Part shown: piece after piece, positions 26,841-49,300 of the stretch
How the letters are laid out: the number at the start of each line of letters is the position of its first letter
How positions within the stretch are numbered: the first letter of the stretch is position 1
Position numbers and translations under genes: made by a program
NCBI GenBank assembly: GCA_964428655.1
Contig: CAYRYE010000002.1
Coordinates: 183,156 to 247,155 of the forward strand
Origin: an uncultured Gammaproteobacteria bacterium
GTDB taxonomy: Bacteria; Patescibacteriota; Microgenomatia; UBA12405; JAHJSD01
Length of the DNA: 64,000 nucleotides
Direction of reading: 5' to 3'
Notes under the pieces: model-generated
What the model saw: only the letters and a program-made list of their open reading frames with translations
Told to the model about the DNA's origin: nothing
Database searches by the model: none

Positions 26841-26847
26841 AACTAAA

Positions 26848-27840: not shown

Positions 27841-27920
27841 CTATTCCCTGGTGTTGATAAAGCTTGCAAGACCAGAAAAATAATGCCAAAATGAAGCAAT
27901 AGATAAGTAGATAATTAATA

Positions 27921-29354: not shown

Positions 29355-29377
29355 AAATTCAAAACTCAAAAATCAAA

Positions 29378-30328
29378 ATGCAAAGCTACATCTCAAAAAT
29401 CAAAAATTTCAAATTTTTATTTGTATTTTTGATCTTTAATCTTTTATTTTTAATTTCCGGCCAAAAAGCCGGCGCCCAGCAGGTAGTCAAAATGGCAGCC
29501 ATCCCCCCAAGAGCCGAAGACCTAATTGCCGATCCAGGTGAAGTCATCACCCGACAAATAAAAGTCCGCAACATGGGTAATGCGGAAATGGATTTTGAAG
29601 CAAAACTACTTGACTTTCTCGTTCAAGACAGAGAAGGAACGCCAGTTTTTTTGGATGATGAACTCTCAGAAGCCGATAATCGCTGGGCTCTTTCCCAATG
29701 GGTCAATGTCTCCCCTTTTAGATTTGTCATCAAGCCTGGCGAAATCAAAGAACTGGATCTGGTCATTACCGTTCCCGAAGACGCCCTAGCCGGCGGCCAT
29801 TACGCGGCAGTTATTTACCAGCCGACAGGAAGTAGAATTGGCGAGGAAGGAAGCGCTACTAAAGTTATTCCCAGTGTGGCCACACTGCTCTATCTAACTG
29901 TCTCCGGAGATATCACTGAAGAGGCTTTTGTCAAAAGAATGGATATTCCCAAACTTTCAGAATTCGGGCCGATTAAAATTATCAGTGAAATCACCAATTT
30001 GTCAGATATTCACATCAAGCCGTCGGGAGTAATTAAAATTTATAATCTCTTTAATAAGCTTTCAACCAGTTTGCAATTAGATGAATATAATATCTTTCCC
30101 AGTCGTTCCAGAATCTATGAAAATATTTGGGAGCAAAAATGGCTTCTTGGCCGCTATAAGGCTGAACTGGAAGGCGCTTATGGCAGTCAGGGACAAACTC
30201 TGCTAGCAATTGCCTACTTTTGGGTGATACCATATAGGCTAATTCTGGTTGGTTTACTGGCTATCACTCTGGCTATTCTTCTCATTGCTTACCTCAGGAA
30301 AAAAAGAAACACGGATTTATCACAATAA
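29378..30328 (+). CDS. secreted protein with C-terminal TM anchor (paralog-like to 26848..27840)
   Basis: Signal peptide, SGQKAGAQQ cleavage-site region shared with 26848 protein (SSGQKASAQS), C-terminal LILVGLLAITLAILLIAYLRKKRN anchor. Confidence 0.65.
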   Translation: MQSYISKIKNFKFLFVFLIFNLLFLISGQKAGAQQVVKMAAIPPRAEDLIADPGEVITRQIKVRNMGNAEMDFEAKLLDFLVQDREGTPVFLDDELSEADNRWALSQWVNVSPFRFVIKPGEIKELDLVITVPEDALAGGHYAAVIYQPTGSRIGEEGSATKVIPSVATLLYLTVSGDITEEAFVKRMDIPKLSEFGPIKIISEITNLSDIHIKPSGVIKIYNLFNKLSTSLQLDEYNIFPSRSRIYENIWEQKWLLGRYKAELEGAYGSQGQTLLAIAYFWVIPYRLILVGLLAITLAILLIAYLRKKRNTDLSQ

Positions 30329-30352
30329 ACCCCTATTGTGGTAAATTAAAAT

Positions 30353-31255
30353 ATGAATTTGTTTCGACTCTTTATCCTTTTACCGCTGTTTTTCTTCCAT
30401 GCTCCTAATTCATTTGCCAAAGTCAAATGGCAAAAAACAACCATCAACCGCTTTGACTTGCCGGCCGAGTTCAGCGTCGCTGTTTCAGCCTACATCGGCG
30501 GCTATCTTTTTGACATTGAGGGCCTAACCTCACCTTGGGCTAAGGTGGAGTTTTATTCAACTGAAGGCAATATCCAAGTAACTACTATTGCCGACAACGA
30601 GGGTGTTTTTCTATTTCGCTCGGTTTTAGCTCCTTTGCAAACGGGTGATTTTTGCTTTATCAGCTACGACACCGATAGTATTGCCAATAATCCTTTGTGC
30701 TTTCCTCCTCCCCCACCTCAAACTAAAACAACTATTTCAGGTATTGTGCTCTCGCCAACAATTTCACTTGATAAAGAGATTTTTCGTCAAAACGAATTAG
30801 TTGAAGCCCGAGGCCGCGCTTTTCCCAATGCTCAGATCAAAACTTTCCTTTTTGAACAAGAGCGCTCTTGGTGGCAAGAAATCATCGACGTTATCATTCC
30901 CGCCGCCTTTGCCCGGGAAGGGCCAAAACTAACTATCACCGCCAGCAAGGAAGGCTTTTTCTCCTTTAATCTACCAACCCAAAAATCAACCCGCTGGAGG
31001 TTCTTTGTTGGCCCTCAGCTCACTGATGAAACACCAACCGCCCAAAGTAATACTATTGAATTTTTAGCCTTATCTTGGTGGCAATGGCTGCTTTTAAAGA
31101 TCCTTCGCTTTGTCTATCACGTTCTGCGCTGGCTTTTCAGCTTTTTATTCCGCTGGGAGACAATAATTGCATTATTAATTACCTCAATCAGTATAATCTG
31201 TTTTAAACTAAAATCTAAGAACGCCCCAAAGCAGAGCAAACACGCTACGAGGTAA
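30353..31255 (+). CDS. secreted/membrane-anchored hypothetical protein (300 aa)
   Basis: Signal peptide, Pro-rich linker CFPPPPPQTKTT, two C-terminal hydrophobic segments. Confidence 0.55.
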   Translation: MNLFRLFILLPLFFFHAPNSFAKVKWQKTTINRFDLPAEFSVAVSAYIGGYLFDIEGLTSPWAKVEFYSTEGNIQVTTIADNEGVFLFRSVLAPLQTGDFCFISYDTDSIANNPLCFPPPPPQTKTTISGIVLSPTISLDKEIFRQNELVEARGRAFPNAQIKTFLFEQERSWWQEIIDVIIPAAFAREGPKLTITASKEGFFSFNLPTQKSTRWRFFVGPQLTDETPTAQSNTIEFLALSWWQWLLLKILRFVYHVLRWLFSFLFRWETIIALLITSISIICFKLKSKNAPKQSKHATR

Positions 31256-31298: not shown

Positions 31299-31766
31299 TT
31301 ATCTAAAAGTAACCGTTACACTCTGAGGAAACTCAAGGCCATCAACTAAAGCGGTAACAACAAACTGGCCGGGATAATCACTGACAATTTCAAAAACTGT
31401 TTTGCCGAACTTATCAGTACCAGGCTGAACTTCTTTAATTTGAACCTCACCCTCTGTTCCGGCTGTCTTTGGTGCAACTGTCAGTGAGATTAGCTTATCA
31501 GGAACACCAATACCTTGACTATTTAATAAAAAAGCACTAATTCTTACTTTAGTTTGACCGTCCGCTGAAACTACCAAAGGAGCCCCAAAAACATATGAAT
31601 TGCTTAAAGAATAATCTTTAGGCTTAGCCGCTTTGGTTAAATAAACTAAAGCCTGGGGAACTGCATATTTAGCCAAAACAAAAAGACCAATAATCGAAAT
31701 AAAAATCACTAATATCAAGCCCAATTTTGTTTTCTTTTGCTCCACGGGAGCTACCTTGTCTGGCAT
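31299..31766 (-). CDS. N-terminally anchored protein with Ig-like/Big-type beta domain
   Basis: Start at internal ATG (MPDKVAPVEQKK...) followed by a single TM helix; C-terminal beta-rich domain; the upstream 35 codons of the listed ORF lack RBS support. Confidence 0.5.
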   Translation of the reverse strand: MPDKVAPVEQKKTKLGLILVIFISIIGLFVLAKYAVPQALVYLTKAAKPKDYSLSNSYVFGAPLVVSADGQTKVRISAFLLNSQGIGVPDKLISLTVAPKTAGTEGEVQIKEVQPGTDKFGKTVFEIVSDYPGQFVVTALVDGLEFPQSVTVTFR

Positions 31767-32439
31767 AATTAAATTAAAACATGAAAGAAATAACTTGTCA
31801 ATTAGAAAAATCGGCAATCTTATAATATAAATCTGTTTTTGAGAATTGACATCAAGTCTGAAAACAATCAAATTAAAAAATAATAAACTTTCCCCTTAGA
31901 AAGTCGATTTTAAATAGATCAGTTTTCTATAGCAAATCATTACAATGTCTGCCAACCAATAGCCTCTAAAATAAATTCTCCTCCTATAATGATTTATTCT
32001 AAGTAATTTTCGTGAAAAACTTCCCTTTTTCACAGACAGTTTTGATGCAAACAATGATGCCAGCAGATCATCTGCGTCCTCAAAACGTCGGAACAGGACC
32101 GAAGGAATCAGCCAAAAACAATCAAATGTGAAATGCCATTGTTCAAGATTCCCGCAGTTTCTCCTTAGTCTTTGCTTCATTAAGCTGTACTAAGTTACAC
32201 AAAGATACTAATCAGTTATTTCCATACTATATCGTGAAAACACTATGAAAAGAAAATCAAGTTATAAGGTCAAGAATCCCCGCAGATTTCCCTTAACAAA
32301 TCTTTCAAAATAACTCGTTCTAAATATATCAAAGGCTATCAAGTTAAGTACTTGACAAGACTTTTATTATAGTGTAATCTGAATTTTGAAGCTATTTTAA
32401 ACTTTATAACTTGTATAACTGGTATAACATTTACCGAAA

Positions 32440-32952
32440 ATGCAATATTTTAAGCTAGAAAGGACATTCCAACTCTACCTTTTAAAAATAAGAAACCTCT
32501 CTCCTAGGAGTGTCAAAAATTATTTATCTGACTTCCGCCAGTTCTGGAAATGGTTGCTAAGTCATTCCTCCCGACTACTTCGGGACGGTGAAACGACTCT
32601 CTCAAAGTGGAGGGAACAAACATTCCAAATCCAATCAATCACTCCCCAACTTTTATCTGACTACAAAAACCATCTTTTAACCAGTAATATCAGCAAATCA
32701 ACTACCAAGAGAAAGCTGGCAACTATTAGAATTTTTTGCCAATTCTGCCTAAATCAAAACTGGATGAAGAAAAACCCTGCTCTGGAATTGGAAAATCCAT
32801 CAAGATTAGGTCCAAAAGAAAAAGAAGTCCATGATCTACTCTCCAAATTCGGCAGTTATTTGAAAACTGAAAATATGAGCAAAAATACAATTAAAAATTA
32901 TATAGCTGATGCAAGACAGTATTTGGTATCTGGTATATCGAAAAATGTCTAG
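32440..32952 (+). CDS. protein with two tandem tyrosine-recombinase N-terminal (SAM-like core-binding) domains and no catalytic domain; possibly the detached N-terminus of the downstream giant gene
   Basis: NLSPRSVKNYLSDFRQFWKWL and NMSKNTIKNYIADARQYLVS match the XerC/D/phage-integrase N-terminal core-binding domain pattern (LSxnTlxaYrrdLxxFxxwL); ends 18 nt before the 2457-aa gene, whose own N-terminus is a bare TM helix. Confidence 0.6.
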   Translation: MQYFKLERTFQLYLLKIRNLSPRSVKNYLSDFRQFWKWLLSHSSRLLRDGETTLSKWREQTFQIQSITPQLLSDYKNHLLTSNISKSTTKRKLATIRIFCQFCLNQNWMKKNPALELENPSRLGPKEKEVHDLLSKFGSYLKTENMSKNTIKNYIADARQYLVSGISKNV

Positions 32953-32969: not shown

Positions 32970-35900
32970 ATGAAATATTCAATTTGCAAAGGACTAAAAA
33001 ATAGTCTCAATATGCTGGCTAATTTCCGCCTGCGGACATTGATTACCATTCTCGCCGTCCTGACTACCTTAACTGGAATTGTTTTATTCCTCAACAAAAA
33101 CCCCCAACTAGCCGAGGCTGCCTGGTACAATGGCGCCTGGACTTACAGAAAAAAACTTACCTTTGACAACTCTGGACAAAGTGAAAATCTAACTAACTTC
33201 CCTACTATGGTCAAGCTGACCAGCACTAATTTTACCTTTAGCCAGGCCCAGTCAAGCGGTCAGGATATTAGATTTACTGATTCTGCAGGCACTAACCTTT
33301 TAGATTATGAAATTGAATCTTTTGACGCATCTGGAGAAGAAGCTTATCTCTGGGTCAAGGTGCCTCAAATAGACGGTTCTTCGGCTACAGACTATATCTA
33401 CATGTACTGGGGCAATCCAAGCGCTTCTGATGCCCAAGACGCTGATGCTACCTGGAACAGCAATTATAAAGGGGTTTGGCATTTGAATGATGATGCCGCG
33501 ACCTCCACTGTTTCTGATTCTTCAGGCAACAGCAACAACATCACCAGCTCAGGCACGACTGACAAATATACCAGCACCGGTCAAATGGGAGGCAGTTTTA
33601 CCACCATGGGCACACCCCAGGTTGTTCCCAATCAGGCTGGTAGTACTTCAGAACTATATCCTTCAATAAAACTTGATTCTAATGATTATCCGGTGATTGC
33701 TTTTTTTGATGACACAGACAATGACTTAATGCTGCTCCATTGCAATGACCCAGATTGTAAAGGCGATGATGAAAGTCTTGAGGTGGTTGAAAGCTCCGGA
33801 AATACTGGCTACTACCCTTCACTTCAATTAGATACCAACGACTACCCTGTCATTGCCTACTGGGATAATACTGGTGATGATTTAAAATTTGTTCATTGTG
33901 ATGATGTTAATTGCACTGGTACAGAAACTCCGGTAAGTCTAGACACGGTGGGCGACACCGGTCGTTGGCCTTCAATGCAATTAGACTCTTCTGGCTATCC
34001 AACCATCGCCTATTTTGACAACAGTAATGATGCCCTTAAACTAATTCATTGTGATGATGCTGATTGTACCAGCTATAACACGGAAACTGTTGATGCCACT
34101 GCCAACAGCGCCTATCTCCACAGCATCTCTCTACAATTAGATGACAATGACTATCCGGTGATTGCTTACTACCACCACACTGCTGATCCTACTCGCAAAG
34201 TAAAAGTAACTCGCTGTAATGATGTTGATTGTGATGGCGTTGGTGAATCAACTGAGTCTCCTGTTGACGGCGCCAACCAATACCGCTATCTTTCTCTTCA
34301 ACTTGATATTACTGACGAATATCCCATGATTACTTATTATGATGAAACCATTGGCGACCTTTTTTATATTCACTGCGATGATGCTAACTGCGCCGGCGTG
34401 GAAACACCAAAAACCCTCACCACCGGTACTGCCCGCCAGCCCTGGATGGAATTAAACAGTTCTGGTATTCCAATCATAATTACTCATTACAGCGTCTACC
34501 CCCGGCTTTTTATCTGTTCTGACGCTGACTGCACTACTGACAGTGAACAATATATTACTCTAAATAACCAATATTACTGTAATTATCCCACTATGGAGTT
34601 GGATAGCAATGACTATCCTGTGTTTGCTTGTTATAGCCGAGGTAAAACAGGCAGTTATGATATCAATCTCTATAGACTTAGTCCTAAGTTAACCCAAAGT
34701 TATGACTCGGACTTTGATTTTGGCACCGGAGATTTTTCTGCTTCAATGTGGTTTAAAAGTGATGACGCTTCACAAAACTTTCTCCTTTCCCGCTATGATG
34801 CTGACCAGGGATATAAACTCTGGCTGGATTATGGCGGTCATCCCTGCTTTGGCATTGATGATGACAGTTCTTTTGGTCCTGATGACAGCGCCTGCACTAC
34901 GCCCGCAAATACAGAAGTTGACATGGACGGACAAGGTGGAACTGTTGAAGAACATGATATGAAATTAAACAGTGTTAATGGCTATCCAGTAATTGCTTTT
35001 TTTGATGAAACTAATGATGATTTAGAAGTTGTCCGCTGCAATGACGCTACCTGCACGAGCACAACTACTACCACTATTGATAGCAGCGGCGATGTTGGCC
35101 GTACTCCCTCTCTTCAACTTGATTCAAATAACTATCCAGTTATTGCTTATCATTATAACACCAGCCAAGATTTAAAAATTGTTCATTGTGGTAGTACTGA
35201 TTGCTCCAGCGGCAATACCATTAACACAGTTGACAGCGGCGGTAATGTTGGCGACTACCCTTCTCTTCAACTAGATACTACTAATGGCTATCCGGTGATT
35301 GCCTACTATGACGCCACTAATACAGCCATAAAACTGGTTCATTGTGATGATGTTAACTGTGATGGTGATGAAAGCGGCAATACTGTTACTGTTGACAACA
35401 CTGAAATCGATTATCCTTATATCAGTGTTACTTGGATGAAGCTTGACACCAATGGTTATCCAGTCATGACTTATCATAATAACACTACCTATGACCTTAA
35501 ACTAGCCCACTGCGACAATGCCGGCTGTACTGGTGATCAAAGCGGCAATATTGTTACCGTAGAAACTTCAGGAACTATTGGCAGATATGCCTCGCTTGAA
35601 CTAGATTCAAATGATTATCCAGTTATTGCAACCCATAGAGCCAGCTCTGATCTTAAGCTCATCCATTGCAGTGATGCTAACTGTACTACTAAAACCAGCA
35701 ACTATGTAGAAGAAAGTACTAATATGGATAAAGGATATTACTATATCGACCTAGAACTTAATGACTCAGGTTACCCAGTAATTCTTCACACTTCTTTAGC
35801 TCATTGGAACCATATTTTGACAATTTGCAATGATGTTAATTGCGCCGGCAGTGATGAAAGCTTCACTCATATCCGCGGCAGCGCATCTGATTATTTATTT

Positions 35901-38900
35901 AGCTCTCTGGAGTTAGATAGCAATGATTATCCGGTAATCAGCTATTATGATAGTGGTAAATTAAACCTGCTCCATGCTACTGCTACTACTTATACTGATA
36001 CAAATGCTTATGATGACGGCAGTTGGCATCATTTAGTCGCTGTCAAAGACGATACTTCTTCCATCAAGTTATATATTGACGGAGCTGAAGTAGCTTCTGA
36101 TACTTCAATTGCCGCTCTTAACACTCTGACCTCTGATTCTGCTGAATTAAGACTAGCAGAGACTATTACTGTTCTTGCTGGCAATGACTACTCTACTTAC
36201 AACTGGAGTGGTGATATTGATGAAGTCCAGATTGATAGTACTGCCCGTTCTGCTGATTGGGTAGCTGCTCAGTATCTAAGTGAAAGTGATGGTTTTATTA
36301 CCTTTGGTACTTTAGAACTTGGCTCCACCGGAGATGGAGAAAAACCAGTTGCGTATTGGTCCTTCGACTCCGGTTACGGAACCGTCGCTCAGGATAAAAC
36401 TACTAATAATATCGATCTTGAGATCACAGGTGCCGCTTGGAGATCAGAAGAAGATTGCTTCTCTGGAAAATGTTTATACTTTGACGGATCTGGAGATTAT
36501 TTAAGAAGTACTGACAGCAACGTAACTACAATAGCTTCTGGAGCAAGCGCTACATATTCTGTTTGGTTTAGAACTGGAGATACAACTACAGAGGCAAATT
36601 ATCCAAATATAATGGGAATTAGGGATACATCTTCGTCACCATATGACATATTTAATTTGCGGCTCTATCAAGAAAGAATTGAAGGGGAAATATATGAAAA
36701 CGATAATAACGACAGCATTCGCTGGACAACAAGCGTTATTGACAATCAATGGCATCATGCTGTTCTAGTTAAAAATGGCAACACTGCCCATCTATACGTT
36801 GATGGTCTTTTAAAAGATTCAGGTACTCGAACTTGGGGAGAAATTTCAGACACTGAATTTCTTATTGGAGCAAGAGAAACCACTGGCGGGTATTTTAAGG
36901 GCTTCATAGATGAGCCAAAAGTCTATGACTATGCTAGAACAGCCGCCCAGGTAAAAACTGACTATATCAGAGGGGCTGGTGCTCATGGAGGCAGTGCGGT
37001 TCTAGGAGCTGAAGATACTTCTTATCTTAATGATGGATTGGTTGGGTATTGGAAATTAGAAGAAACCTCTACTCCAGCTATTGATAGTTCTGGAAATGGG
37101 AATTCGGGAACTTGGACTGGCGATAACATTGATGATACAGCAGGAAAGTTTGGAAACAGTATAAGTCTTGGAGGCACAGATGACTATGTAGATATGGGCG
37201 TAGTAGGACCAGTAGATGGAGCAACAGCTTTAACTGTTTCGGCTTGGGTTAAACCAGACGGCGCTGTTAGCGATAGCATTGTTGACCAATATGGCGATAG
37301 CAGTAGTGCTACCTTTCTTTTTTATACCAACTCCTCCGGTTTAAGAGGGCTTGTTGAAGATAGCAGCAGTAATAGATATTACGGAAGCATATCAGATGCC
37401 GCTCTCGCTGTTGACACATGGCAGCACGTTGTTATGACTTGGGATGCTGATAGTCAAACTATTTATGGCTATGTAAATGGTGAAAAACAAACTAATTCTG
37501 TCTCAGCGCCAATCAGCAGCCTTAGAGGAACTGCTGTCAAAAATCTAGTTATTGGCGGCACCTGGAATGATTTTGCCGGTGAAATTGATGAAGTCCGCGT
37601 ATATCAGCGCGCATTAAGTTCAGCGGAAATCCGCGCGCTATATAACTGGGCTCCGGGGCCTGTTCTCTATTACAGCCTTGATGAACATACAGGAACTTCT
37701 ACAGTTTATGATAGATCGGGTAACGACTATGACGGAACAATGAGTGGTCTATCAGAAAGTAGCTGGGTTTTAGGAAAATATGGTAGTGCATTAAACTTTG
37801 ACGGTAATGACAGTGTTAATATAACTGGTTTTACCAGTACTACAAAAAGCAATACTATTGAAATGTGGGCAAAAAGCTCACTAGGAGATACAACTTATGA
37901 CTACCTACTTGATTCAACTACAGGCAGATTTGTTTTTGCCTGGTTTTCCAGTGTGTCTGGGCAAATTGGTTTTTATGACGGCGCCTGGAAATCATTTGGG
38001 GACACACCAAATGACGGTGAATGGCACCATCTTGCTTTAGTATTAAACAGCAGTACTTCTACTGCCTCATTATATATTGATGGCGTTAAATTTGGCTCAG
38101 ATCAGGCATATACAGACAAGGATATTAGCGGAGATACTTATCTGGCAACCAACTATCTTGGTACTGGTGGTTATTTTAATGGCTCTCTTGACGATGTCCG
38201 TATCTACAACTACGCCCGGACTCCAGGGCAGATTGTGGAGGATATGAATGCGGGCCATCCAATTGGAGGCAGTCCTGTTGGAAGTCAAGTTGGTTATTGG
38301 AAGTTTGATGAGGGATATGGAACAACAGCTTATGATAGTGGACTACATGCTGAAAATGGCACTCTAACTAATTCTCCCACTTGGTCAAACTCTGGCAAAA
38401 TTGGCAAGGCTTTAAGTTTCTCCGATAGCAGTAACGCCACTTACGTAAGCATTCCTGGATCAGGAGAGCTTGAAGATGTAACTGATAATAGCTACTCCTT
38501 TTCTGCTTGGATGAACCCAGCTTCCATTCCTTCTTCTGGCACAAATAATGTTATGACAGCAGTGGGTAGACCAGGATACCATACACTAATTGGATACTAC
38601 TACACTCAGAAAATGATCATGCATGTTCGTAATTCAGATGGTACAGCATTTGCCACAACCTCTTCCAATACCTTCTCTATTGATAATTGGAACCATGTAG
38701 TTGGCGTGGCTGATACCAGTGACAACTCTATAAAAATCTATGTCAATGGAAAATTAGAAGGTACTGGCAGTTGGACTGGAACACTCAGGGATTTCGGAAC
38801 CGGAGAATATAGAATTGGAACTTCGAGGAATGGTTCTTGCTCCGCTGATTGGGCATTTTGTTTCGATGGACTAGTTGATGAGGCAAAAATCTATAACACC

Positions 38901-40343
38901 ACCTTAACCCAAGAAGAAATTCTTATAGACTACAACCAAGGAAAAGCAATGGTTTTGGGAGCATTAAGCACTGATGCTTCTGGAAATGCAGATTTTTCTT
39001 CAGAAAGAGGTTATTGTCCTCCGGGAGATACCACTGCTTCCTGTTCTCCTGTGGGAGAGTGGAAAATGGATGAGAAAACAGGAGTTTATGCTTATGATAC
39101 GAGTGGAAATAACTACACTGGCACCCTTGCTAATTCCCCAACATGGGTACAAGGAAAAGTAGGAGCAGGGCTTGATTTCACCAGAACTTCAAGTCAATAT
39201 GTCTCAACCGCTGATATTGATATCACTAACTCGTTTACACTTGAAGCTTGGGCATATACCACAGACTCAGCTAATCAAAAAGCTATAATCTCTAAAGGAA
39301 CAGGAACTACAACTAACTATTGTTTGGATCTCCGAAGTGCTGATAATTCCATTGGTTTCTTTGTTTATGATAGTGGAGGAGCCGCGCGCGGGCTGACCGG
39401 ATCAACTACAGATAAGTTCCCTACTAACCAATGGACCCATATAGTCGCAGTCTACAACAGCGCCTCAACACCCAACTTTCAAGTTTTTCTAAACGGATCA
39501 GCTATATCCAATACTGCTAACTGGACTGGAACTATGGCTTCAAATGACACTAATACAACTATTGGAGCAAGAGCGACAGGTGATAATTTTTTCGATGGCA
39601 AACTTGACCATGTCAAAATTTATGACTATGCCCGATCTGCATCCCAGATCGCCTGGGATTATAATCGGGGCGGACCGGTGGGATGGTGGAGGTTTGATGA
39701 AAATCAGGAAATGATTGTGTATGATGCTTCAGGAAATGAGAATAATGGGGATCTTGAAGCCTCAATGACAAGTGATGATTGGGTTGAGGGGAAATACAAT
39801 ACTGCTTTGGATTTTGATGGAGGGGATGATTATGTCACCCTCACAAACAACCTCTCCTTAGATTCTGATAACTGGTCAATATCGTGGTGGATGAATAGAA
39901 ATGAACGTGACTATGAGTGTATCTTTTCAAAAGCAATAGGTAGTTTCGCTGGAATGATAGAGGTTGATCATACAAGTTACCCTAATCAAATCAGAGTAGA
40001 ATCTAACACCAATAATGAATGGGTTAAATTTTTTTCAACAAGTATTGATACAACGGATGGTCAGTGGCATCATTATAATCTAGTGTTTGGGCCGAGCAAT
40101 TCGTACCTTTATGTAGATGGTATTCTTACTGATACCGAAACAGCAAATAGCGATTCCGCTGACTATCTAATTAGATACATTGGTGTGCAGCAACAGCAAG
40201 TTACATACATTTATGGTGATTATTTCCAGGGATTATTGGATGATGTTCAAATTTTTAATTATGCCTTAACCCCGTTACAAATTGAAAATTTATATAATCA
40301 GGAATCTGCTATTAGGTTCGGTCCTTCTAGCGGATCACCATAG
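32970..40343 (+). CDS. giant cell-surface protein (2457 aa): N-terminal TM, about 18 tandem 48-aa Cys-containing repeats, then about 8 LamG/concanavalin-A-like lectin domains
   Basis: Repeat unit G..G.YPSLQLDSNDYPVIAYYDxTNxDLKLVHCDDxNCTG recurs from aa 220 to 1000; LamG_3-like cores (DGSWHHLVAVKDDTSSIKLYIDGA, NQWHHAVLVKNGNTAHLYVDG, GEWHHLALVLNSSTSTASLYIDG, DNWNHVVGVADTSDNSIKIYVNG, NQWTHIVAVYNSASTPNFQVFLNG, GQWHHYNLVFGPSNSYLYVDG). Confidence 0.9.
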   Translation: MKYSICKGLKNSLNMLANFRLRTLITILAVLTTLTGIVLFLNKNPQLAEAAWYNGAWTYRKKLTFDNSGQSENLTNFPTMVKLTSTNFTFSQAQSSGQDIRFTDSAGTNLLDYEIESFDASGEEAYLWVKVPQIDGSSATDYIYMYWGNPSASDAQDADATWNSNYKGVWHLNDDAATSTVSDSSGNSNNITSSGTTDKYTSTGQMGGSFTTMGTPQVVPNQAGSTSELYPSIKLDSNDYPVIAFFDDTDNDLMLLHCNDPDCKGDDESLEVVESSGNTGYYPSLQLDTNDYPVIAYWDNTGDDLKFVHCDDVNCTGTETPVSLDTVGDTGRWPSMQLDSSGYPTIAYFDNSNDALKLIHCDDADCTSYNTETVDATANSAYLHSISLQLDDNDYPVIAYYHHTADPTRKVKVTRCNDVDCDGVGESTESPVDGANQYRYLSLQLDITDEYPMITYYDETIGDLFYIHCDDANCAGVETPKTLTTGTARQPWMELNSSGIPIIITHYSVYPRLFICSDADCTTDSEQYITLNNQYYCNYPTMELDSNDYPVFACYSRGKTGSYDINLYRLSPKLTQSYDSDFDFGTGDFSASMWFKSDDASQNFLLSRYDADQGYKLWLDYGGHPCFGIDDDSSFGPDDSACTTPANTEVDMDGQGGTVEEHDMKLNSVNGYPVIAFFDETNDDLEVVRCNDATCTSTTTTTIDSSGDVGRTPSLQLDSNNYPVIAYHYNTSQDLKIVHCGSTDCSSGNTINTVDSGGNVGDYPSLQLDTTNGYPVIAYYDATNTAIKLVHCDDVNCDGDESGNTVTVDNTEIDYPYISVTWMKLDTNGYPVMTYHNNTTYDLKLAHCDNAGCTGDQSGNIVTVETSGTIGRYASLELDSNDYPVIATHRASSDLKLIHCSDANCTTKTSNYVEESTNMDKGYYYIDLELNDSGYPVILHTSLAHWNHILTICNDVNCAGSDESFTHIRGSASDYLFSSLELDSNDYPVISYYDSGKLNLLHATATTYTDTNAYDDGSWHHLVAVKDDTSSIKLYIDGAEVASDTSIAALNTLTSDSAELRLAETITVLAGNDYSTYNWSGDIDEVQIDSTARSADWVAAQYLSESDGFITFGTLELGSTGDGEKPVAYWSFDSGYGTVAQDKTTNNIDLEITGAAWRSEEDCFSGKCLYFDGSGDYLRSTDSNVTTIASGASATYSVWFRTGDTTTEANYPNIMGIRDTSSSPYDIFNLRLYQERIEGEIYENDNNDSIRWTTSVIDNQWHHAVLVKNGNTAHLYVDGLLKDSGTRTWGEISDTEFLIGARETTGGYFKGFIDEPKVYDYARTAAQVKTDYIRGAGAHGGSAVLGAEDTSYLNDGLVGYWKLEETSTPAIDSSGNGNSGTWTGDNIDDTAGKFGNSISLGGTDDYVDMGVVGPVDGATALTVSAWVKPDGAVSDSIVDQYGDSSSATFLFYTNSSGLRGLVEDSSSNRYYGSISDAALAVDTWQHVVMTWDADSQTIYGYVNGEKQTNSVSAPISSLRGTAVKNLVIGGTWNDFAGEIDEVRVYQRALSSAEIRALYNWAPGPVLYYSLDEHTGTSTVYDRSGNDYDGTMSGLSESSWVLGKYGSALNFDGNDSVNITGFTSTTKSNTIEMWAKSSLGDTTYDYLLDSTTGRFVFAWFSSVSGQIGFYDGAWKSFGDTPNDGEWHHLALVLNSSTSTASLYIDGVKFGSDQAYTDKDISGDTYLATNYLGTGGYFNGSLDDVRIYNYARTPGQIVEDMNAGHPIGGSPVGSQVGYWKFDEGYGTTAYDSGLHAENGTLTNSPTWSNSGKIGKALSFSDSSNATYVSIPGSGELEDVTDNSYSFSAWMNPASIPSSGTNNVMTAVGRPGYHTLIGYYYTQKMIMHVRNSDGTAFATTSSNTFSIDNWNHVVGVADTSDNSIKIYVNGKLEGTGSWTGTLRDFGTGEYRIGTSRNGSCSADWAFCFDGLVDEAKIYNTTLTQEEILIDYNQGKAMVLGALSTDASGNADFSSERGYCPPGDTTASCSPVGEWKMDEKTGVYAYDTSGNNYTGTLANSPTWVQGKVGAGLDFTRTSSQYVSTADIDITNSFTLEAWAYTTDSANQKAIISKGTGTTTNYCLDLRSADNSIGFFVYDSGGAARGLTGSTTDKFPTNQWTHIVAVYNSASTPNFQVFLNGSAISNTANWTGTMASNDTNTTIGARATGDNFFDGKLDHVKIYDYARSASQIAWDYNRGGPVGWWRFDENQEMIVYDASGNENNGDLEASMTSDDWVEGKYNTALDFDGGDDYVTLTNNLSLDSDNWSISWWMNRNERDYECIFSKAIGSFAGMIEVDHTSYPNQIRVESNTNNEWVKFFSTSIDTTDGQWHHYNLVFGPSNSYLYVDGILTDTETANSDSADYLIRYIGVQQQQVTYIYGDYFQGLLDDVQIFNYALTPLQIENLYNQESAIRFGPSSGSP

Positions 40344-40366: not shown

Positions 40367-43300
40367 ATGGATTTAAACAAATTACTACAACTAAATCAAA
40401 TCAGACACTATTTAGAAACCTTGAGAGTACAGGGTAAAAGTGAGGCGACTATCAGACGAAAGGCGATAGCGCTAAAGAAATTCGCAGAGTGGGCTGCCAC
40501 CAAGGAACAATCCCGAATTGGGATCGGAATCGGAATAATTGGCGGCACTAAACCAAAAACATTCAAAGAACAAGTCTCTCATAAAATACTTAATACTAAA
40601 TACCAAATACTAAATACTCTTTCCTCTGTTCCCGCCTACTTCAAGTTCGGCGCCATTGCCATCATGACCGTTGCTCTGGGCCTATTCATTTATGATCAAT
40701 TTATTAAGAAAGCTCCAGAGCAACTAGCCTATCCTTCCACCCTCACAGCTCCATCACGAGTCCTTTCCTTTCAAGGCCGGTTGACTGACGACCAAGACAC
40801 GCCAATCACCGACTCAACCAACTTTGTTTTTAAACTTTGGAAAGTAGAGGAAAATGGAACAGAAGTTGATTGTGATGGCGGTGGAGATGAAGATTGTCTT
40901 TGGGAATCAAACACCTGCGGCATTAACCCTGATGAAGACGGCATCTTCTCAGTCCGGCTAGGAGCGACCAGTGGCTCTGACGCTTGCGGCGGAGCAATTG
41001 ACTCCTCGGTCTTCACTGAAAATATTGGCATTTGGTTAGAAGTAACTGTAGCCAGCGAAACACTTGATCCCCGTCAACCAATTGCCACCTCAGCCTATGC
41101 CTTAAACGCTGAAACTCTACAAGGATTTCCGCCAGGAACCGGCACAAGCAACATATTATATATAGACAGCAGTGGCAACATTGGCATCGGTGTCACTTCA
41201 CCTACCCTAGATGCCACCAGCTCCAGCGGCACTTTTGCCATCAAGGGCCAATCATTACTACTGCAAACTCCTAATACTTCTGATGGCGACATTGGTATCA
41301 ATCCTGACGGTGAAGGTGTTTTAGATTTGATTTTTGATGGCTCTGCCCCTTCAAGCAGTTATACCAGCAACGGCATCGGCGGCTTTGTCACTGCCACCAA
41401 CAGCAACATTACTTCCGGAGCAATGTATTTTGGTGAAGTCGCTTCAGTTGCCACCGGCTATGACTTTATCCAATTTATGTCCGGCTCAACGCCAACAGAA
41501 AAATTCTCGGTTGATGCTTCAGGCCACACCTACATCGCCGGCAACGTCGGGATTGGGACGACAAACCCTAATAACTTTAAACTTCAGGTGGATGGCAATG
41601 TTGGTCCTCAGACTGACAGCGACTATGATTTAGGATCTGACACTATTAGATGGGCTAATGTTTATGCTGATAATTTAATTGGTACTATCTCTCCAGGATT
41701 TTCTGAAGGATCAGTTATCTTTGCTGATAGTTTAGGAGATCTTACTGAAGATAATGCTAATTTCTTTTGGAATGATACTGATGATAGGTTGGGGATTGGA
41801 ACTACGGAGCCAGGGGCAAAATTACATACTTATAGAAATGACACTATTGGAACATGGGGGGCAATGACATTATCTAATGCCACTGCCTTATTTCAGGATT
41901 CAGGTGTTAATCTCTATGTTGACGGAAACACTTTAGTAACTAGTGGAGATTTATATCTTGGTACTTCAACAGCAAGTGACATTTTTTTTGGTACTAACGA
42001 CGCCTATACAGTCACCTTTAAATCAGGCGGTGATGTGGGAATTGGCACAACTGAACCCTCTGCCCTACTTTCAGTTGGTTCTACTTCTCAATTTCAAGTC
42101 AACTCTTCTGGAGCCATTGCGGCAGCAACAGGCATTACCTCTTCTGGAACCATTACATTTTCTGATCTTAGCACTAATGGACCTACCTATGTTGCTACAG
42201 GAGTAATGAATAGTGAACAGTATCTTGACATGACTAGAGGAGGAACTGATGCTGATCTTTCAGGGGTAGCTGAAGGAGGTTTAATATATAAAGCAGCTTC
42301 TGCTCTAGCAGGTACAGGAGCTTTAACAGGAATGCTGAAAGGCAATACTGCTTCGGCTCCTAGCGCAGTTACTTCTACAGCCGACTATGTTACTTATTGG
42401 AGTGATGCCAACACTATTACTGGAGAGCAATACCTCTCAGTCAGCCGAGGTGGGTCTGGAATAGGCACCTTCACTAAAGGAGTTCTCCTTTCTCCCGGTG
42501 GCACTACTGCTTTTACTACTGTAGCTGGAATAAACAATTACATCCCCAAATGGTCATCTAGTTACATAACTACCACTAGCTCAATTTATGATGATGGCGA
42601 TGTCGGCATTGGGACGACTGGGCCGGGACAGAAATTAACAGTTCAAGATGATAATTCAGATAGCATTCCAACAGATCAGGATTTAGAAGTAGGGCAGATT
42701 CAAATTCAAAATCTTGACGCGTCAGCAGTATTTGCAGGTCTATCTTTTAGGGCAAGAACAACAAATAGAGCTATGGGATTGATTGGATTGGATTGGGCAA
42801 GTGGTGCTGGTGATATTTTCTTCCGAATCAGAGATGGTTCTTTAACTTCTAAAGAAGTTATGAGATTAGAAAGTACGGGCAACGTCGGGATTGGGACAAC
42901 AGATCCTCAAGCTTTACTCTCAGTAGGTTCTACTTCTCAATTCCAGGTAAACTCGACTGGAGCCATTGCGGCAGCAACTGGAATAACGTCTTCAGGCACT
43001 ATTACTTTTAGTGGTTTAACCGCTAATCGTTTAGTCACTACCACCACAGGAGGACAATTAACCAATTCCATCACCTCGGCTAATGTTGACGACTCAGTCA
43101 CGAATAACACAGGATCAGGTCTTCTTGTGTTTGCTACTTCACCTATCTTTACTACAGATATAACTACTCCTCAGATTCTTTCTTCTGCTGATTTAACTAT
43201 TGATCCAGCAGGAGAAAATGTCAACCTAGGCTCAGGAGACAATCTTAACATCACAGCTTCAACTGATTTGTTCTTTGGCACTACTTCATTGGGAGAGATA

Positions 43301-46300
43301 ACAGGACCAACTGATTCTGGTGCTTATGTAGTAGGAACTAATGATGAGTTTAGTAATAGTGATGAAGTTAATGTTCAAGGAGTCTTAGATGATTTAGATG
43401 CCCATATTGAGAGTTTGGAAACGGGTGGATCTGGTCTATGGATAGATGATGGTTTATACATTTATCCTATTAACTTTACTGACTTTGTCATTACTGATGC
43501 CGGCAACGTGGGGATTGGGACAACGGGGCCGGATAGTCCTCTTGAAATTAGCGGCAGTGGTGCTCAACAATTAAAAATCACTTCAACTGACCATATAAGC
43601 TCGGCAGTTGTTTTGGAAAGAACTGATAATGACTACTATGACTGGAGAATGATGAATAGCGGCGGTAATCTTTTTTTCTCTGAAAGTATAGATGAAGGTG
43701 CTTCTTGGCTTGACAATGTATTCTTTGGAGGCGATCCTACTTATCATGGACGCGTCGGGATTGGAACAACCGCACCTGATGAAGAACTTACAGTTTCCAT
43801 AGCCCAAAACGAATCCACTCTTATAAAAGTAACAAACAGTACTAATGACACCTTAGCAGCTGCTGGATTTTATTTTGACTCTGCTACTAGTAATGGTATT
43901 TTTGCTGCTCTTCCAAGTAATTATACTGGTGGTGGTACGGGAGCGCATTTTGCTGATCGGGTTGGATTCACTGCTTATGATACTGCCGCTGGCCTAGATG
44001 TTGTTGCTATTGACACTAACGCCGACATCCGCTTTTACACTGGCGGCCTTGCAATTTCAAATGAAAGAATTAGAATTGAGTCCGGTGGCAACGTCGGGAT
44101 TGGGACGACGGGGCCAAACGCGCAGTTCGAGGTTCGAGGTTCAGGGTTGGAGGCAAGATTAACAGATGATGGAACAGGATATTATGCAGATTTAGGAGTT
44201 GACTCCAGCGGCAATCTAACTATCTCTACTTCAAATGGAGCCTTGAACCTTGAACCTACAGCCAACCAGAACTTGAATATCACTACTTCAGGAACAGGAG
44301 ATGTAGCAGTCAATACCAACCAACTCTATGTTGATTCAAGTTCTGGCTATATTGGGATTGGGACAACGGGGCCACTTGTGAAGTTAAATGTTTCACAAGA
44401 TCAGGTTACAAGCATAAGTCAAGCGCAGTTTATGATTACAGGAGCAACTGACACTAATAAGAGAACATTGATAGGATATAACACAACAAACAATTACGGC
44501 TGGATGGGAGCAGGAACACTAGATTCTCAATGGGATCCACTGGTTTTACAACCAATTAGCGGCAACGTTGGGATTGGGACGACTAATCCAGGGGCAAAAT
44601 TAGAAGTGGCCGGACAAGTAAAAATTACAGGTGGAAGTCCGGGAGCTGATAAAGTATTAACTTCAAATGTTAGTGGTTTAGCCACTTGGGAAACAATTGG
44701 TGGTGAAGGGGTTACTCCTGATTCTTTAGACTACACTGAGTTTGTTGATGCAATGACTGTTGACGATAACACCAGTATTAATCTCTACAGTGGCACTACT
44801 GATGTTGATCTTAGATATTACAATTCCAGCTCCTCAGACGAACTACTCTTTTTAGATGGAAGCACGGGGTACGTCGGGATTGGAACGACTGGGCCGGGGG
44901 CAAGGTTAGACATTCATAATGATGCAAGCACAGGTGTCCCTTTAAATGTAATGTCTAGAGCTGGTTCAGCAGATAACGGAGAACTACAGATTGGCTTCAT
45001 TAATAATGACGGAGGACAAAGCTGGCGTATGGGAACCGCAAGCGATAGAAATTTTTACATTACAGAAGATGATGCTGGTGGTTATGGAACATCCAGATTG
45101 ACTCTCGAAGAAGGCGGCAACGTCGGCATTGGGACGACAAATCCAAGCGCTACACTACACGTTGCAGGCAATACACTAACAACAGGTAATACCTATATTG
45201 GCGCTACCACCGGCGATCAATACTTTTGGAGTGATTCCGCAGGAAGAATTGCTACAATGGCAGATTTTTATGTCCAAGCTACCTCATCAAACACTTACCT
45301 CTACTCTGCCATCACATACCTGGGAGCTGCCTCAGGTGATAACATCCTTTTCAGAGCAAATGAAGTATATGGCGATTCCTGGAGAATATCCTCTACTACT
45401 GGAGCTTATCACGCCGGCTCATCTACTGAATATGTTTATAATCGTTTCGGCTCCGGAGGAACAGCTAATTTTGCTTCTGATGATGCTTCTGATGTATATG
45501 TTCAGGATGAATTAGAGGTGGATGGTTCTATATGTTTGGGTGGGGTTTGTGAGTCTACCTTCCTGGATTTTGGTCCGTGGGACTATAACTCTGGCGCTAA
45601 CACTGTTCATCCTGATAGCACTTCCTACAATGTAGGTATTGGTACAACCAGCGCCGGCACTGCCAAACTAGCAGTAATAGGCGGCAATGTGGGGATTGGG
45701 ACAACGGGGCCGGGATATAAACTCGATGTAAATGCCGGAACTGATAATGAAATTACAAGATTTATCAGTACAGATGATTCGGCAAGAATTTTAGTTACGG
45801 ATGAGGATACAACCACATACTTGGGTTCTAGTAACGGATATACATATTTAGGTGGTGGAGCAGGACTTCTAGCTCAGAACCTGGTGATAAATACAACAAC
45901 CGGCAACGTCGGGATTGGGACGACTGATCCCAAGGCAGAACTTCATGTGATGGGTACATCTGGCACTATCCCCTCCTTATTTAGTGGTACCAATCTGGTT
46001 GTATCCAATACAGAAGCTGCTGGAAACAATACTAATATCTCAATTTTAGGTGGTGCAGAAGGTGATACGGCAATTATGTTTGGCGACACTGCTGACGAAG
46101 ACGCAGGAGCAGTTAGTTACGATCACAATACAGACTATATGTCTTTCAGGGTAAATGCAGGGACAAAGATGACCATTGACGATAGTGGCAACGTCGGGAT
46201 TGGGACGACGGGGCCAGGAATGCCTCTCCATTTAACCAAAGCGAGTAATGATTTAGTTGAGTTTGAAAGTACTAATTCATGGATGGGGTTGCATTTAACA

Positions 46301-49300
46301 GGAGCCGCAGGGTACGACTCAAACATTTATTTCAAAGAAGCTGATACAAAAGAAATGAGAATTAGTTGGGATGCTTCGGAAAACGAGTTAGCATTTGTGG
46401 ATGAAACAGATAGTGCTGCGAGAAGAATGGTTATAGAACAAACCGGCAACGTGGGGATTGGGACGACGGGGCCCACTTCCCTACTTCACCTGGCCTCTAC
46501 TTCTACATCTACCGGCTTTACTGGTTTTAATCTGGATTGGTCGCCTGGTTCTGCTGCCACTCTTACCGGTGATCTGTTTGCTATCAACATTGGCAGTAAT
46601 GGTAATGCTGATAATTTATTTAATGTGTTAGATAATAGTTCCTCTTTATTCTCTGTCTCAGAAACCCAGATAACCTCTGCTCTTCCCCATCAATTTACAT
46701 CTACAGGAGATGTGTCAATAGCTTACGACATAATTTTTACTAACCAAACCGCTTCTTATATAAAATCTTATGCTCCTTTATATATTGATGCTGGAGAATC
46801 TTTTGAAAGCAATGATCTGACTTTATCTACTTATAATGCCGGAGATATTGTTTTTGACGCCGGTGATGCCAGCGGCGATACAGGAACAATTAAATTTTAT
46901 GATGCTTATGTTAAGGGAGCAACTGATACGACACCAATTGCTTTTTCTGATGTGGCCGCTGATATTAATACTTTCAGAACAAATTACACTGATGAAAATA
47001 TTATTGGCGCTTTTAATGAAGTCTATGATGCGGCTACCGGCTCTGTTGGTGGTGGCGGTCCCTGGACTCGCTCTGGAACTGATACTTATCTTACTAATAC
47101 TGGAGATAACGTCGGTATCGGAACGACGGATCCAGACAATAAACTAGACATCAGTGGGACATTGGAAGTTGGTACTAGTACTAGAGGAGCTCTCTTATAT
47201 TCTACTGCCGCAGATAATTTTAGATTCCACACCTATACTAATACCCCCAATCCAAATATTCGGATTGGATATGGTAATGGATCAGGTGGACAAGATACTT
47301 CAAGTGAATATATTGATATGAATGCAGGAGAGATAAATTTCATAAATGCCGACGTCGGGATTGGGATAGCGACTCCGGATGAACCTTTAGAAATTTATAG
47401 ATCAAATGATCCCACTGCAGGTACTACATATTTAAAAATAACAAATCCTTCAAGTGGAAATTGGAAGACTGGAGAAGCAGCAACAGGTATACGGTTCGAA
47501 AAGGAAGGGAAAATTACAGGATATATTGAATCCGCGCACTTCCGTACCGGCAGTGGAGCGGATCATAGTAACGAGGATGCTGGACTTGCCTTCGGTACAA
47601 GACACAGCCATGATTTAGATCCAACTACCAAGATGGTAATCGATAATTATGGCAACGTAGGAATTGGGACAACGACGCCGGGAGCTAAGCTAGACATCCT
47701 ATCGACCGGCGAACAACTAAGAACTAGCTATAACTCCAGCAATTACACTCAGTTTGAAACCGACAGCGATGGCGACTTAAATATCACCCTCAACGGGGGT
47801 GGAAGTGATAAAAGAGTAATCATTAGTAATGATCTGCAAATTAATGGTGGAGATATTGTTGACAGCAGCGGTACTACAAGAATCAGCATCGGCAATGTAA
47901 TCTCTCTTTATCCTGACTCCTCCAATTTAGTCCGAGTTATCAACACCAGTGGATCACCAGCCAGTAGATATTTGCCATTAAGACTAACTCGCTCATATTC
48001 TAGTTTCAGCACAAGTTATGAGGTTGGGATACAGTTTGACATCCAAGAAAACACCACTGTCATGCCGGCAGGATTTATTAGCAGTAAAATTACAGACTCT
48101 ACAAATGAGTATGGCAAAATGTTTCTCGCCACTTCAGATGGAACTGGCGATACTGATTGGGAAATAGGGATAACCATAGACCACTTGGGCAACGTCGGGA
48201 TTGGGACGACGAATCCAACAGAAAAACTTCATGTTGTTGGAGATGGCTACTTTACCGCCGATGTAGGTATTGGAACTGCTGTCAACGCCACTTATGACCT
48301 ATCGGTTGGATCACATATAAGAACGGTCTCGGGCAACATTTACTCTGGAGGAACCCAAGGATTTGTGTTCGGGAGTTCTACTAGTGAAGGAGAATATATT
48401 TATAGATCCGGCAATGATATTCGAACATATGCAGGAGGAGCTAATGTACTCACTGTTGATGGAGATAACGGAAGAGTCGGGATTGGGACGACGGGGCCGG
48501 AAATGACATTAGATGTTTATGGAGGTGTTGGTACTGGTATTATAGTTGGGGATCATGCAGTGAGACAGCCATATATTAGACGCTCTCTACATAGCCCAAG
48601 TGATGTGACATATAGTTTTTATGGTTACACTGATGCTGGGATGTATATGCCTGAAGCTAACAAATTAGCTTTCGCTGTAAATGGTGGAGAAAGAATTACA
48701 CTAGACAGTGGCGGCAACGTCGGGATTGGGACGACGAGTCCGCTAGGGCAACTTGATGTTGTTGGTGGTGTAACCAGAACCGGAACCGCACCAACAACCC
48801 CATCTTTTTACGTAACTGGTACATTAAGTGCTGGTACAGCAGGACCCGCAGCCAATAACATAGAGTTCAGACACGATAATCAAACCCAAGGAATAGGTTT
48901 TGGGTATCAGACAATCTACGCAACAGGAACAACTACCAATCAACCATTAAATTTGTTGTCGAGAGGATCAAGCCCAATAACATTAAACGCGTACGGGTAC
49001 AGCACCGGCAACGTCGGGATTGGGACGGCGGGGCCGTTGTCAAAACTTAGCGTCGGCGGAGCTGGCATATCTAACACCGGCGTGTATGGCTACGGCACCA
49101 GCTACGGCGTGTATGGCGGCGGCGGCACCTACGGCGTGTATGGCAGTGGCACAGGCTACGGTGTGCGAGCAATGGGCGGTACCTACGGCTTGTATGGCAG
49201 CGGCACAAGCTACGGCGCATATGGCGCGGGCGATACCTCCGGCGTGTATGGCGACGGCGGTACCTACGGCGTGTATGGCGACGGAACCACTGGCGTGCGT

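Follow-up and report, generated by a model that had tools for sequence, protein, structure and literature searches.

The 64,000-nucleotide stretch of contig CAYRYE010000002.1 (GenBank assembly GCA_964428655.1) analysed here, which we refer to as the window, carries at positions 32970..40343 of its forward strand a gene for a 2457-residue protein, encoded in a single open reading frame (ORF). Sequence comparisons give good support to an unusual arrangement within this protein: one LamG domain appears to be interrupted twice, by a complete seven-bladed beta-propeller each time. From N to C terminus, the protein is laid out as a signal peptide or signal anchor (residues 1-50), a DUF2341 domain, a split first LamG domain with its two propellers, A and B, and six intact LamG_3 domains spanning residues 1126-2448. 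This architecture (the ORF, twice seven blades and a split LamG) is well supported and we hold it with high confidence. The ORF itself is real, as a preliminary description of the sequence had stated, and an identical protein occurs on two metagenome contigs of the Joint Genome Institute (JGI), the source samples being 3300008517, to which the longer contig (238 kb) belongs, and 3300008516.

The propellers were recognized in a region, approximately residues 220-1000, that has no match in a Pfam search with the whole protein. Anchoring on the Y-P-V-I motif resolves this region into 14 repeat units forming two blocks of seven (residues 223-580 and 654-1013), with a unit spacing of 49-56 residues; the non-repeat segment of 73 residues that parts the two blocks represents the central part of a LamG domain. 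To guard against circularity, we used a hidden Markov model (HMM) built from 2,439 blades, none of which came from the query protein or its orthologues. This independent blade HMM finds exactly 14 units in the query, seven per block, with independent E-values (i-E) from 3e-5 to 2e-25, and shuffled versions of the repeat region (n=200) score at most 6.8 bits with it. Tandem Repeats Finder detected no tandem repeats at the DNA level, which argues that the copies are old and stem neither from a recent duplication nor from an assembly artefact. The repeat region of the query protein has no match in Pfam, NCBIfam or the PDB sequences. When each block alone was compared to Pfam at E-values up to 10, Thioredoxin_6, DUF4988, ChitinaseA_N and similar families came up, all under their cut-offs, and we regard them as noise.

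Structure prediction supports the interpretation of the blocks as two seven-bladed beta-propellers made of four-stranded blades. In a first AlphaFold2 (AF2) run, covering residues 160-1110 with 49 aligned sequences, both blocks are predicted with a local distance difference test score (pLDDT) mostly above 90 and four strands per unit. Foldseek searches against the PDB return 7-bladed propellers, the best being the Photorhabdus PLL/PHL lectins (E-value about 1e-11, probability 1.0, template modelling (TM) score on the target 0.72-0.77), and the alignments span 345-368 columns, which is the length of one block. The four-stranded blades and the fact that all top fold matches are propellers argue against a beta-solenoid. 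A single 14-bladed ring was likewise rejected, as proteins of the family mostly carry 7 or 14 blades and the structures to which each block can be aligned are seven-bladed, and a third propeller is unsupported, there being two seven-blade blocks only. Sequence searches over all PDB entries, by phmmer with the region (E-values up to 1) and by hmmsearch with the blade profile (E-values up to 10), retrieved no PLL/PHL chain; their leftovers, a metallothionein (E-value 0.4) and PIT54 (E-value 0.053), are not meaningful.

How do these propellers relate to the LamG domains? Three segments around the blocks resemble consecutive parts of one LamG domain: YKGVWHLNDD..DSSGN... before the first block its beginning, FSASMWFK...YKLWLDYGG... 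between the two its middle, and WHHLVAV..LYIDG..IDEVQI after the second its end. An HMM of 220 positions built from the query's own LamG copies 2-7 aligns to them colinearly, its positions 4-48 corresponding to residues 169-215, positions 63-81 to residues 586-603, and positions ~130-216 to residues 1010-1105. With the propellers cut out, the joined pieces match positions 4-216 of the 220 as one domain (E-value 5.6e-19), and they also match Pfam LamG_3 in a single uninterrupted stretch that spans the splice (positions 7-151 of 151; 66.5 bits for a cut-off of 27.6). The spliced pieces behave likewise as a single domain in 10 of the 10 full-length orthologues. Most directly, DUF2341-LamG relatives that have no propeller, for example those from candidate division WS2 (L013), Hermodarchaeota (L016) and Patescibacteria (L049), contain the three pieces in one frame within about 225 residues.

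The elements of this nested unit, all on the forward strand, can thus be delimited as follows. The N-terminal piece of LamG domain 1 covers residues 161-218 (positions 33450..33623), according to the own-LamG HMM and to the contiguous pieces of the propeller-less relatives. It is followed by propeller A (blades 1-7, residues 223-580, positions 33636..34709), then by the middle LamG piece (residues 581-653, positions 34710..34928), which includes the conserved C626/C642 and which the LamG HMM places, in the spliced construct, at positions ~60-118, continuous with the C-terminal piece. Propeller B comes next (blades 8-14, residues 654-1013, positions 34929..36008); like propeller A, it is inserted in LamG domain 1 and is delimited by the blade HMM, AF2 and Foldseek. 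The C-terminal LamG piece, with the WHHLVAV...LYIDG...IDEVQI segment, closes the unit at residues 1014-1108 (positions 36009..36293; own-LamG HMM, i-E 5e-15). Invariant columns among 11 orthologues amount to 29-33% in the LamG pieces (31% in the N-terminal piece and 33% in the middle one) and to 14-17% in the propellers. This higher invariance argues for a host domain under strong constraint rather than a decayed remnant.

The preliminary description had counted about 18 copies of a 48-residue repeat in a continuous run over residues 220-1000, had proposed two or three beta-propellers or a beta-solenoid, and had placed this run ahead of a string of at least eight LamG domains. The repeat is real and two propellers are retained, but the blade HMM gives 14 copies with the longer period stated above, and the third propeller and the solenoid are dropped. 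The run is in fact two blocks of seven parted by the 73 residues of the LamG middle, and the spliced constructs, the orthologues and the propeller-less relatives locate it within the first LamG domain instead of before the string. As for the string, its LamG_3 assignment is strongly supported by Pfam, but we count seven domains, six intact and one split in three.

Outside the nested unit, the remaining domains lie on the same strand and are readily recognized. The signal peptide or signal anchor (positions 32970..33119) is read from a hydrophobic stretch ending in A-E-A followed by A-W-Y-N, and from the orthologues: in all ten full-length ones, a hydrophobic segment runs directly into an AxA-type site, after which comes (A/T)WY(N/D), and the mature N terminus AWYNGAWTYRK is conserved. 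From this N-terminal sequence we infer Sec export with cleavage at the AxA-type site. The DUF2341 domain (about residues 51-160, positions 33120..33449) has its Pfam match (PF10102) at residues 97-170, directly after the N-terminal hydrophobic segment, with 62.8 bits for a cut-off of 23.4, and AF2 predicts a beta-sandwich over residues 59-147 with a pLDDT of ~77-84. Laminin_G_3 (PF13385) is matched in seven stretches with an E-value of 3.7e-153 and 504.8 bits, the cut-off being 27.6. Both Pfam and the own-copy HMM delimit the intact copies: domain 2 at residues 1126-1338 (positions 36345..36983; i-E 2.5e-78 with an HMM that includes domain 2 itself), domain 3 at residues 1358-1562 (37041..37655), domain 4 at residues 1564-1765 (37659..38264), domain 5 at residues 1773-1994 (38286..38951), domain 6 at residues 2027-2236 (39048..39677) and domain 7 at residues 2236-2448 (39675..40313). 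In the linker joining domains 5 and 6 (residues 1995-2030, window positions ~38952-39059), we noted a pair of cysteines in ..RGYCPPGDTTASCSPVGEW.., which is kept in the orthologues (consensus ..AQYCVPGS.DPCSPP.GEW..) and probably forms a small disulfide-closed loop.

The blades share a conserved (H)C-x-D-x-x-C core, and the two cysteines per repeat that had been noticed at the outset are indeed both present in 12 of the 14 copies. These CX4C pairs occur in blades 1-6 of propeller A and 8-13 of propeller B, while the last blade of each block (7 and 14) has none; blade 7 carries C537/C554 in its place. Every cysteine in residues 223-1013 has a nearby partner, in the form of twelve CX4C pairs, C537/C554 and C626/C642. 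Across the blade family, when both positions are aligned (n=2,440), 2395 blades have both cysteines, 40 have neither and only 5 have a single one. The cysteines are conserved at 90-91%, compared to 54% for the adjacent His and 58% for the Asp. The CX4C of each blade thus most likely forms a local disulfide, a reading we prefer to a metal site at (H)C-x-D-x-x-C because the cysteines are strictly coupled while the His is weakly conserved.

The blade is by no means confined to this protein. A word-indexed search with the repeat region retrieved 646 proteins from Chloroflexota, Actinomycetota, Gammaproteobacteria (including Legionella waltersii), Bacteroidota and the Candidate Phyla Radiation (CPR), all of them named after other domains or as hypothetical proteins. 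With a 14-blade profile, HMMER searches of 1.84 billion cluster representatives (clusters at 50% identity) returned 10,197 representatives at E-values up to 1e-3, 5,863 at 1e-10 and 1,769 at 1e-30. Among 265 proteins with blades, 123 have seven, 52 have 14 and 30 have 13. The repeat had been described as looking new. It is new only in lacking a name: neither Pfam nor NCBIfam has a model for it, and sequence comparison identifies no relative of solved structure, yet it is common in bacteria. If the blade family were defined, thousands of surface proteins now listed as 'hypothetical' could be better annotated.

In contrast to this wide spread, the nested layout was found in few genomes. It is common to ten full-length orthologues (42-50% identity, 1768-2069 residues) and two fragments, one of the nested orthologues being annotated as from a Microgenomates group metagenome-assembled genome (MAG). 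A scan of 185,579 species genomes, one genome per species, with the orthologue alignment detected the nested form in three. The best genome match, at 53% identity, is a Candidatus Roizmanbacteria MAG, RIFCSPLOWO2_01_FULL_41_22; the two others, at 44-45% identity, are third-party annotation (TPA) MAGs labelled Pseudomonadales and Gammaproteobacteria, and we treat these labels with caution. The contigs of these two MAGs, L004 (CAYTOI010000011.1) and L005 (CAZATL010000028.1), labelled 'uncultured Pseudomonadales' and 'Gammaproteobacteria', resemble the CPR window in their gene content around the match (a fibre-like giant and a DUF2341-LamG giant) and in their GC content of 41-45%; their labels may reflect mis-assignment or binning contamination. 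The nearest orthologues, from the Microgenomates group and Candidatus Roizmanbacteria MAGs, agree with the Patescibacteria origin assumed beforehand. We also noted another DUF2341-LamG protein, of 1757 residues, with Kelch-type propeller Pfam matches (P0133). Propellers of different types may therefore have entered the LamG giants of its group on several occasions.

Four co-directional genes with little space between them occupy positions 32440-53062, and the gene studied here is the second. They encode, in order, a 170-residue protein with SAM-like domains, the propeller-LamG protein, a giant protein of 3849 residues and a tetratricopeptide repeat (TPR) protein. The giant lies 23 nucleotides downstream (40367..51916, forward strand) and is a tail-fibre-like repeat protein: it matches the PHROG tail-fibre families phrog_9942 (E-value 1e-59) and phrog_18345 (E-value 3e-46), has no Pfam match, and contains 22 (G)NVGIGT copies about 70-220 residues apart, as well as a Gly/Tyr-rich low-complexity stretch near residues 2900-3000. 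Its N terminus resembles an integrase SAM-like helix and continues with a membrane-spanning segment. A homologue of this fibre-like giant adjoins the orthologue in L004, and a homologous C terminus lies at the start of L003, which suggests a functional pairing and makes the 3849-residue giant a likely partner of the propeller-LamG protein.

Further observations concern the other members and surroundings of this gene group. The upstream ORF (32440-32952, forward strand) has only phage-integrase N-terminal SAM-like domains (PF13102, PF02899) and no catalytic domain, and a similar SAM-like segment (..ATIRRKAIALKKFAEWAATK..), again a module of the DNA-binding type, opens the 3849-residue giant at positions 40367-40520 (forward strand). 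The last gene (51920-53062, forward strand) encodes a 380-residue TPR protein whose C-terminal ~105 residues are homologous to a region of L004 that also matches the C terminus of the fibre giant (window positions 51600-51916). The two proteins end alike, in ..RFNYWIIN for the giant and ..KFRWWLIEN for the TPR protein, which suggests that they share a C-terminal domain. Directly upstream of the group, at 26043-31255 on the forward strand, are five co-directional ORFs of 265, 367, 477, 316 and 300 residues with signal-peptide-like N termini and no Pfam matches; three end in a membrane-spanning segment and a basic tail, and two end in similar ..QEAG.YE/T....Y.A..S.. motifs. Possibly these ORFs form a cluster for surface proteins, or a fimbria-like one, that is as yet uncharacterised. 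On the reverse strand, at 31299-31871, a small membrane-anchored protein, a further surface component of this neighbourhood, has a match to the bacterial Ig-like domain Big_1 (E-value 1e-7) whose 32.4 bits fall just under the cut-off of 34.9. The wider neighbourhood is chromosomal, with genes for leucyl- and arginyl-tRNA synthetases (LeuRS, ArgRS), Rho, ComEC/ComEA and envelope functions, and its GC content is uniform. The envelope-related genes include a Wzy_C O-antigen-ligase-like gene, a GT87 gene, a LysM-M23 peptidase and several secreted, C-terminally anchored proteins.

What could be the role of such a protein? CPR bacteria (Patescibacteria) depend on other cells through contact molecules that are mostly unknown, and giant DUF2341/LamG proteins are standing candidates. 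On balance we favour a Sec-exported, multivalent glycan-binding adhesin as the overall reading, although for the adhesin function taken by itself the case looks evenly poised. We favour it because LamG and propeller folds are carbohydrate-binding scaffolds (concanavalin A-like domains and propellers being classic ones), because they are multivalent here, and because adhesin roles have been proposed for DUF2341 and LamG proteins. Specifically, large DUF2341 proteins of Patescibacteria were proposed as adhesion or host-interaction factors (PMC11809585), DUF2341 proteins in archaea as pilus-tip adhesins (PMC4858521), and a LamG domain as the adhesive tip of haloarchaeal tafi (PMC11821415). A role in host attachment is plausible in view of the export signal and the lectin-type folds.

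In such an adhesin, the mature chain would open with the DUF2341 beta-sandwich and continue with seven LamG_3 (concanavalin-A-like) domains. LamG 1 would act as a discontinuous host, with one propeller in the loop behind the 'FDG'-equivalent strand and the second in the loop that leads to the 'WHH-AV' strand. The loop after the third strand of most blades would bear CX4C, whose local disulfide would stabilise the blade outside the cell. Seven LamG faces and up to 14 inter-blade pockets could then provide multivalent binding to glycans or glycoconjugates on another cell or matrix, and the protein probably acts jointly with the adjacent tail-fibre-like giant. A bolder version, which we put forward tentatively and regard as doubtful, would see in the LamG domain and its two nested propellers a lineage-specific head with which Roizmanbacteria-like episymbionts recognise their host and which is dedicated to this task. 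The domain-in-domain arrangement would fix the geometry of the three lectin-type modules, which would read a composite glycan pattern of the host surface together with the tail-fibre-like giant; the CX4C blade would in addition define a large, uncharacterised family of extracellular propeller-lectins. The nested LamG-propeller module is in any case a conserved and unusual candidate for CPR cell contact, and could be expressed alone for tests on glycan arrays or candidate hosts.

Several points weigh against the adhesin. The likeness to PLL/PHL is at the level of the fold only (11-14% identity), and the Trp of their sugar sites is absent from the blade consensus. The class of ligand and the role in adhesion are inferred. 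The window contains no type IV pilus gene, and the protein has no recognisable sorting or cell-anchoring motif (its C terminus is ...RFGPSSGSP, and ...RFGP in the orthologues), which leaves surface retention unexplained. The source is consistent with a Microgenomates-type CPR bacterium, a taxonomy taken from the nearest orthologues alone. Finally, the split LamG is weak in a second AF2 run, made with the orthologue alignment: strands are predicted, but the N-terminal piece has a pLDDT of ~30 and the middle and C-terminal pieces 60-77, the strands of the middle piece being at 60-70. As neither AF2 run gives a confident split-LamG fold, the nesting rests on the sequence evidence, and the reconstitution of a jelly-roll from three pieces is putative.

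Is the architecture also compatible with a structural part of the envelope or sheath, such as an S-layer-like layer or a wall scaffold of the CPR cell, in which the domains would serve self-assembly or bind the cell's own wall polymers instead of a host? The blade family behaves as a general extracellular module in other phyla, fused to cell-wall-binding repeats, sortase-family domains, type IX secretion system (T9SS) sorting domains or RTX repeats, and the envelope-related genes listed above surround the gene. However, the protein contains no anchoring or self-assembly motif, and a nested form present in so few species (3 of 185,579) is more readily seen as accessory or specialised than as belonging to the core of the envelope. 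We consider this explanation unlikely; were the protein an ordinary structural surface protein, our results would represent a modest gain in annotation and not a new principle. Less probable still is a secreted polysaccharide-degrading enzyme, whose propellers would be catalytic (sialidase/BNR-like glycoside hydrolase or lyase) and whose LamG domains would serve as carbohydrate-binding modules, as LamG/concanavalin A-like domains often accompany glycoside hydrolases. The Foldseek matches do include a putative neuraminidase (3h6j), and some blade relatives exceed the cut-off of BNR_4 (PF15892) with 28-57 bits, but these are sums only: no single stretch passes individually, and all blades fall on the same ~35-residue part of the profile (positions ~221-257). 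The query has no BNR_4 match even at E-values up to 10. Sialidase-type propellers, moreover, are six-bladed whereas each block here has seven blades, the blade consensus shows repeat-structural residues only, with no blade-specific invariant set of acidic, Arg or Tyr residues, and non-enzymatic lectins are better structural matches.

The tail-fibre families matched by the downstream giant, together with the phage-integrase SAM-like segments in the 170-residue ORF and at the N terminus of the giant, raise the alternative of a phage or mobile-element remnant, or a domesticated piece of one, in which the propeller-LamG protein and the fibre giant would be phage or tailocin receptor-binding proteins. 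Foldseek also retrieved propeller-bearing phage proteins from BFVD, but these are generic propellers with poor TM scores. The propeller region has no PHROG match, no further phage genes were found around the gene, housekeeping genes (LeuRS, ArgRS, Rho, ComEC/ComEA) lie on either side, the GC content is uniform, and the protein carries a Sec-type signal peptide. The orthologues, too, consistently have a signal peptide and a chromosomal setting. A phage origin thus appears very improbable, and the glycan-binding adhesin remains the reading we prefer.

Comparison with known systems helps to situate each component. The Photorhabdus PLL/PHL 'bangle' lectins (PDB 8q82, 6rgg, 5mxe, 5c9l) are, like each propeller of the query, seven-bladed with four-stranded blades of ~50 residues. 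They bind sugars between blades, through inter-blade fucose/galactose sites based on a Trp 'W-motif' (PMC5584973). Across 2,646 blades of the blade family, no position has Trp as one of its four commonest residues. Unlike the query, these lectins are single-domain soluble proteins and have no CX4C in each blade. Membership of their family by sequence was rejected, given the lack of any sequence match, the 11-14% identity of the structural alignments and the missing W-motif Trp. The partial scores obtained with BNR_4 suggest a distant link of the blade to sialidase-like blades, short of membership. In TafC (NF052521), an adhesin at the tip of haloarchaeal Tat-fimbriae, a C-terminal LamG-like domain has been proposed as the adhesive part (PMC11821415), and the LamG part aligns with the query. 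The query, on the other hand, has neither the pilin-like N-domain nor the Tat motif of TafC, and it scores 170 bits for an NCBIfam cut-off of 410, with only profile positions 149-363, the LamG part, being matched; we therefore rejected membership of this family as well.

Two further groups of relatives complete the comparison. The unnamed HC-x-D-x-x-C propeller family has the same blade, with seven or 14 copies per protein and the coupled Cys pair, but elsewhere it forms a free-standing propeller beside RTX, cell-wall-binding, sortase-family, T9SS or PKD domains; among the relatives whose layout was checked, only the query's own orthologue group has it nested in a LamG. The DUF2341 giants with tandem LamG_3, from Patescibacteria, Asgard and other archaea, Fibrobacterota and others, are proteins of 1,000-2,500 residues, annotated as 'DUF2341 domain-containing protein', that share with the query the N-terminal hydrophobic signal, the DUF2341 domain directly after it and the tandem LamG_3 domains; the identity between their LamG pieces and those of the query is 30-54%. 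In these giants the first LamG is contiguous (~225 residues). In the query and about a dozen orthologues, a seven-bladed propeller breaks it at each of two points. None of the components is of a new kind (DUF2341, LamG_3 and the seven-bladed propeller), and neither is domain insertion as such. Two points are new. One is the recognition that the blade belongs to a very large extracellular family that has a coupled Cys pair and lacks a model in both Pfam and NCBIfam; the other is the conserved insertion of two complete propellers into a single LamG domain, which is confined to a small Microgenomates-type group.

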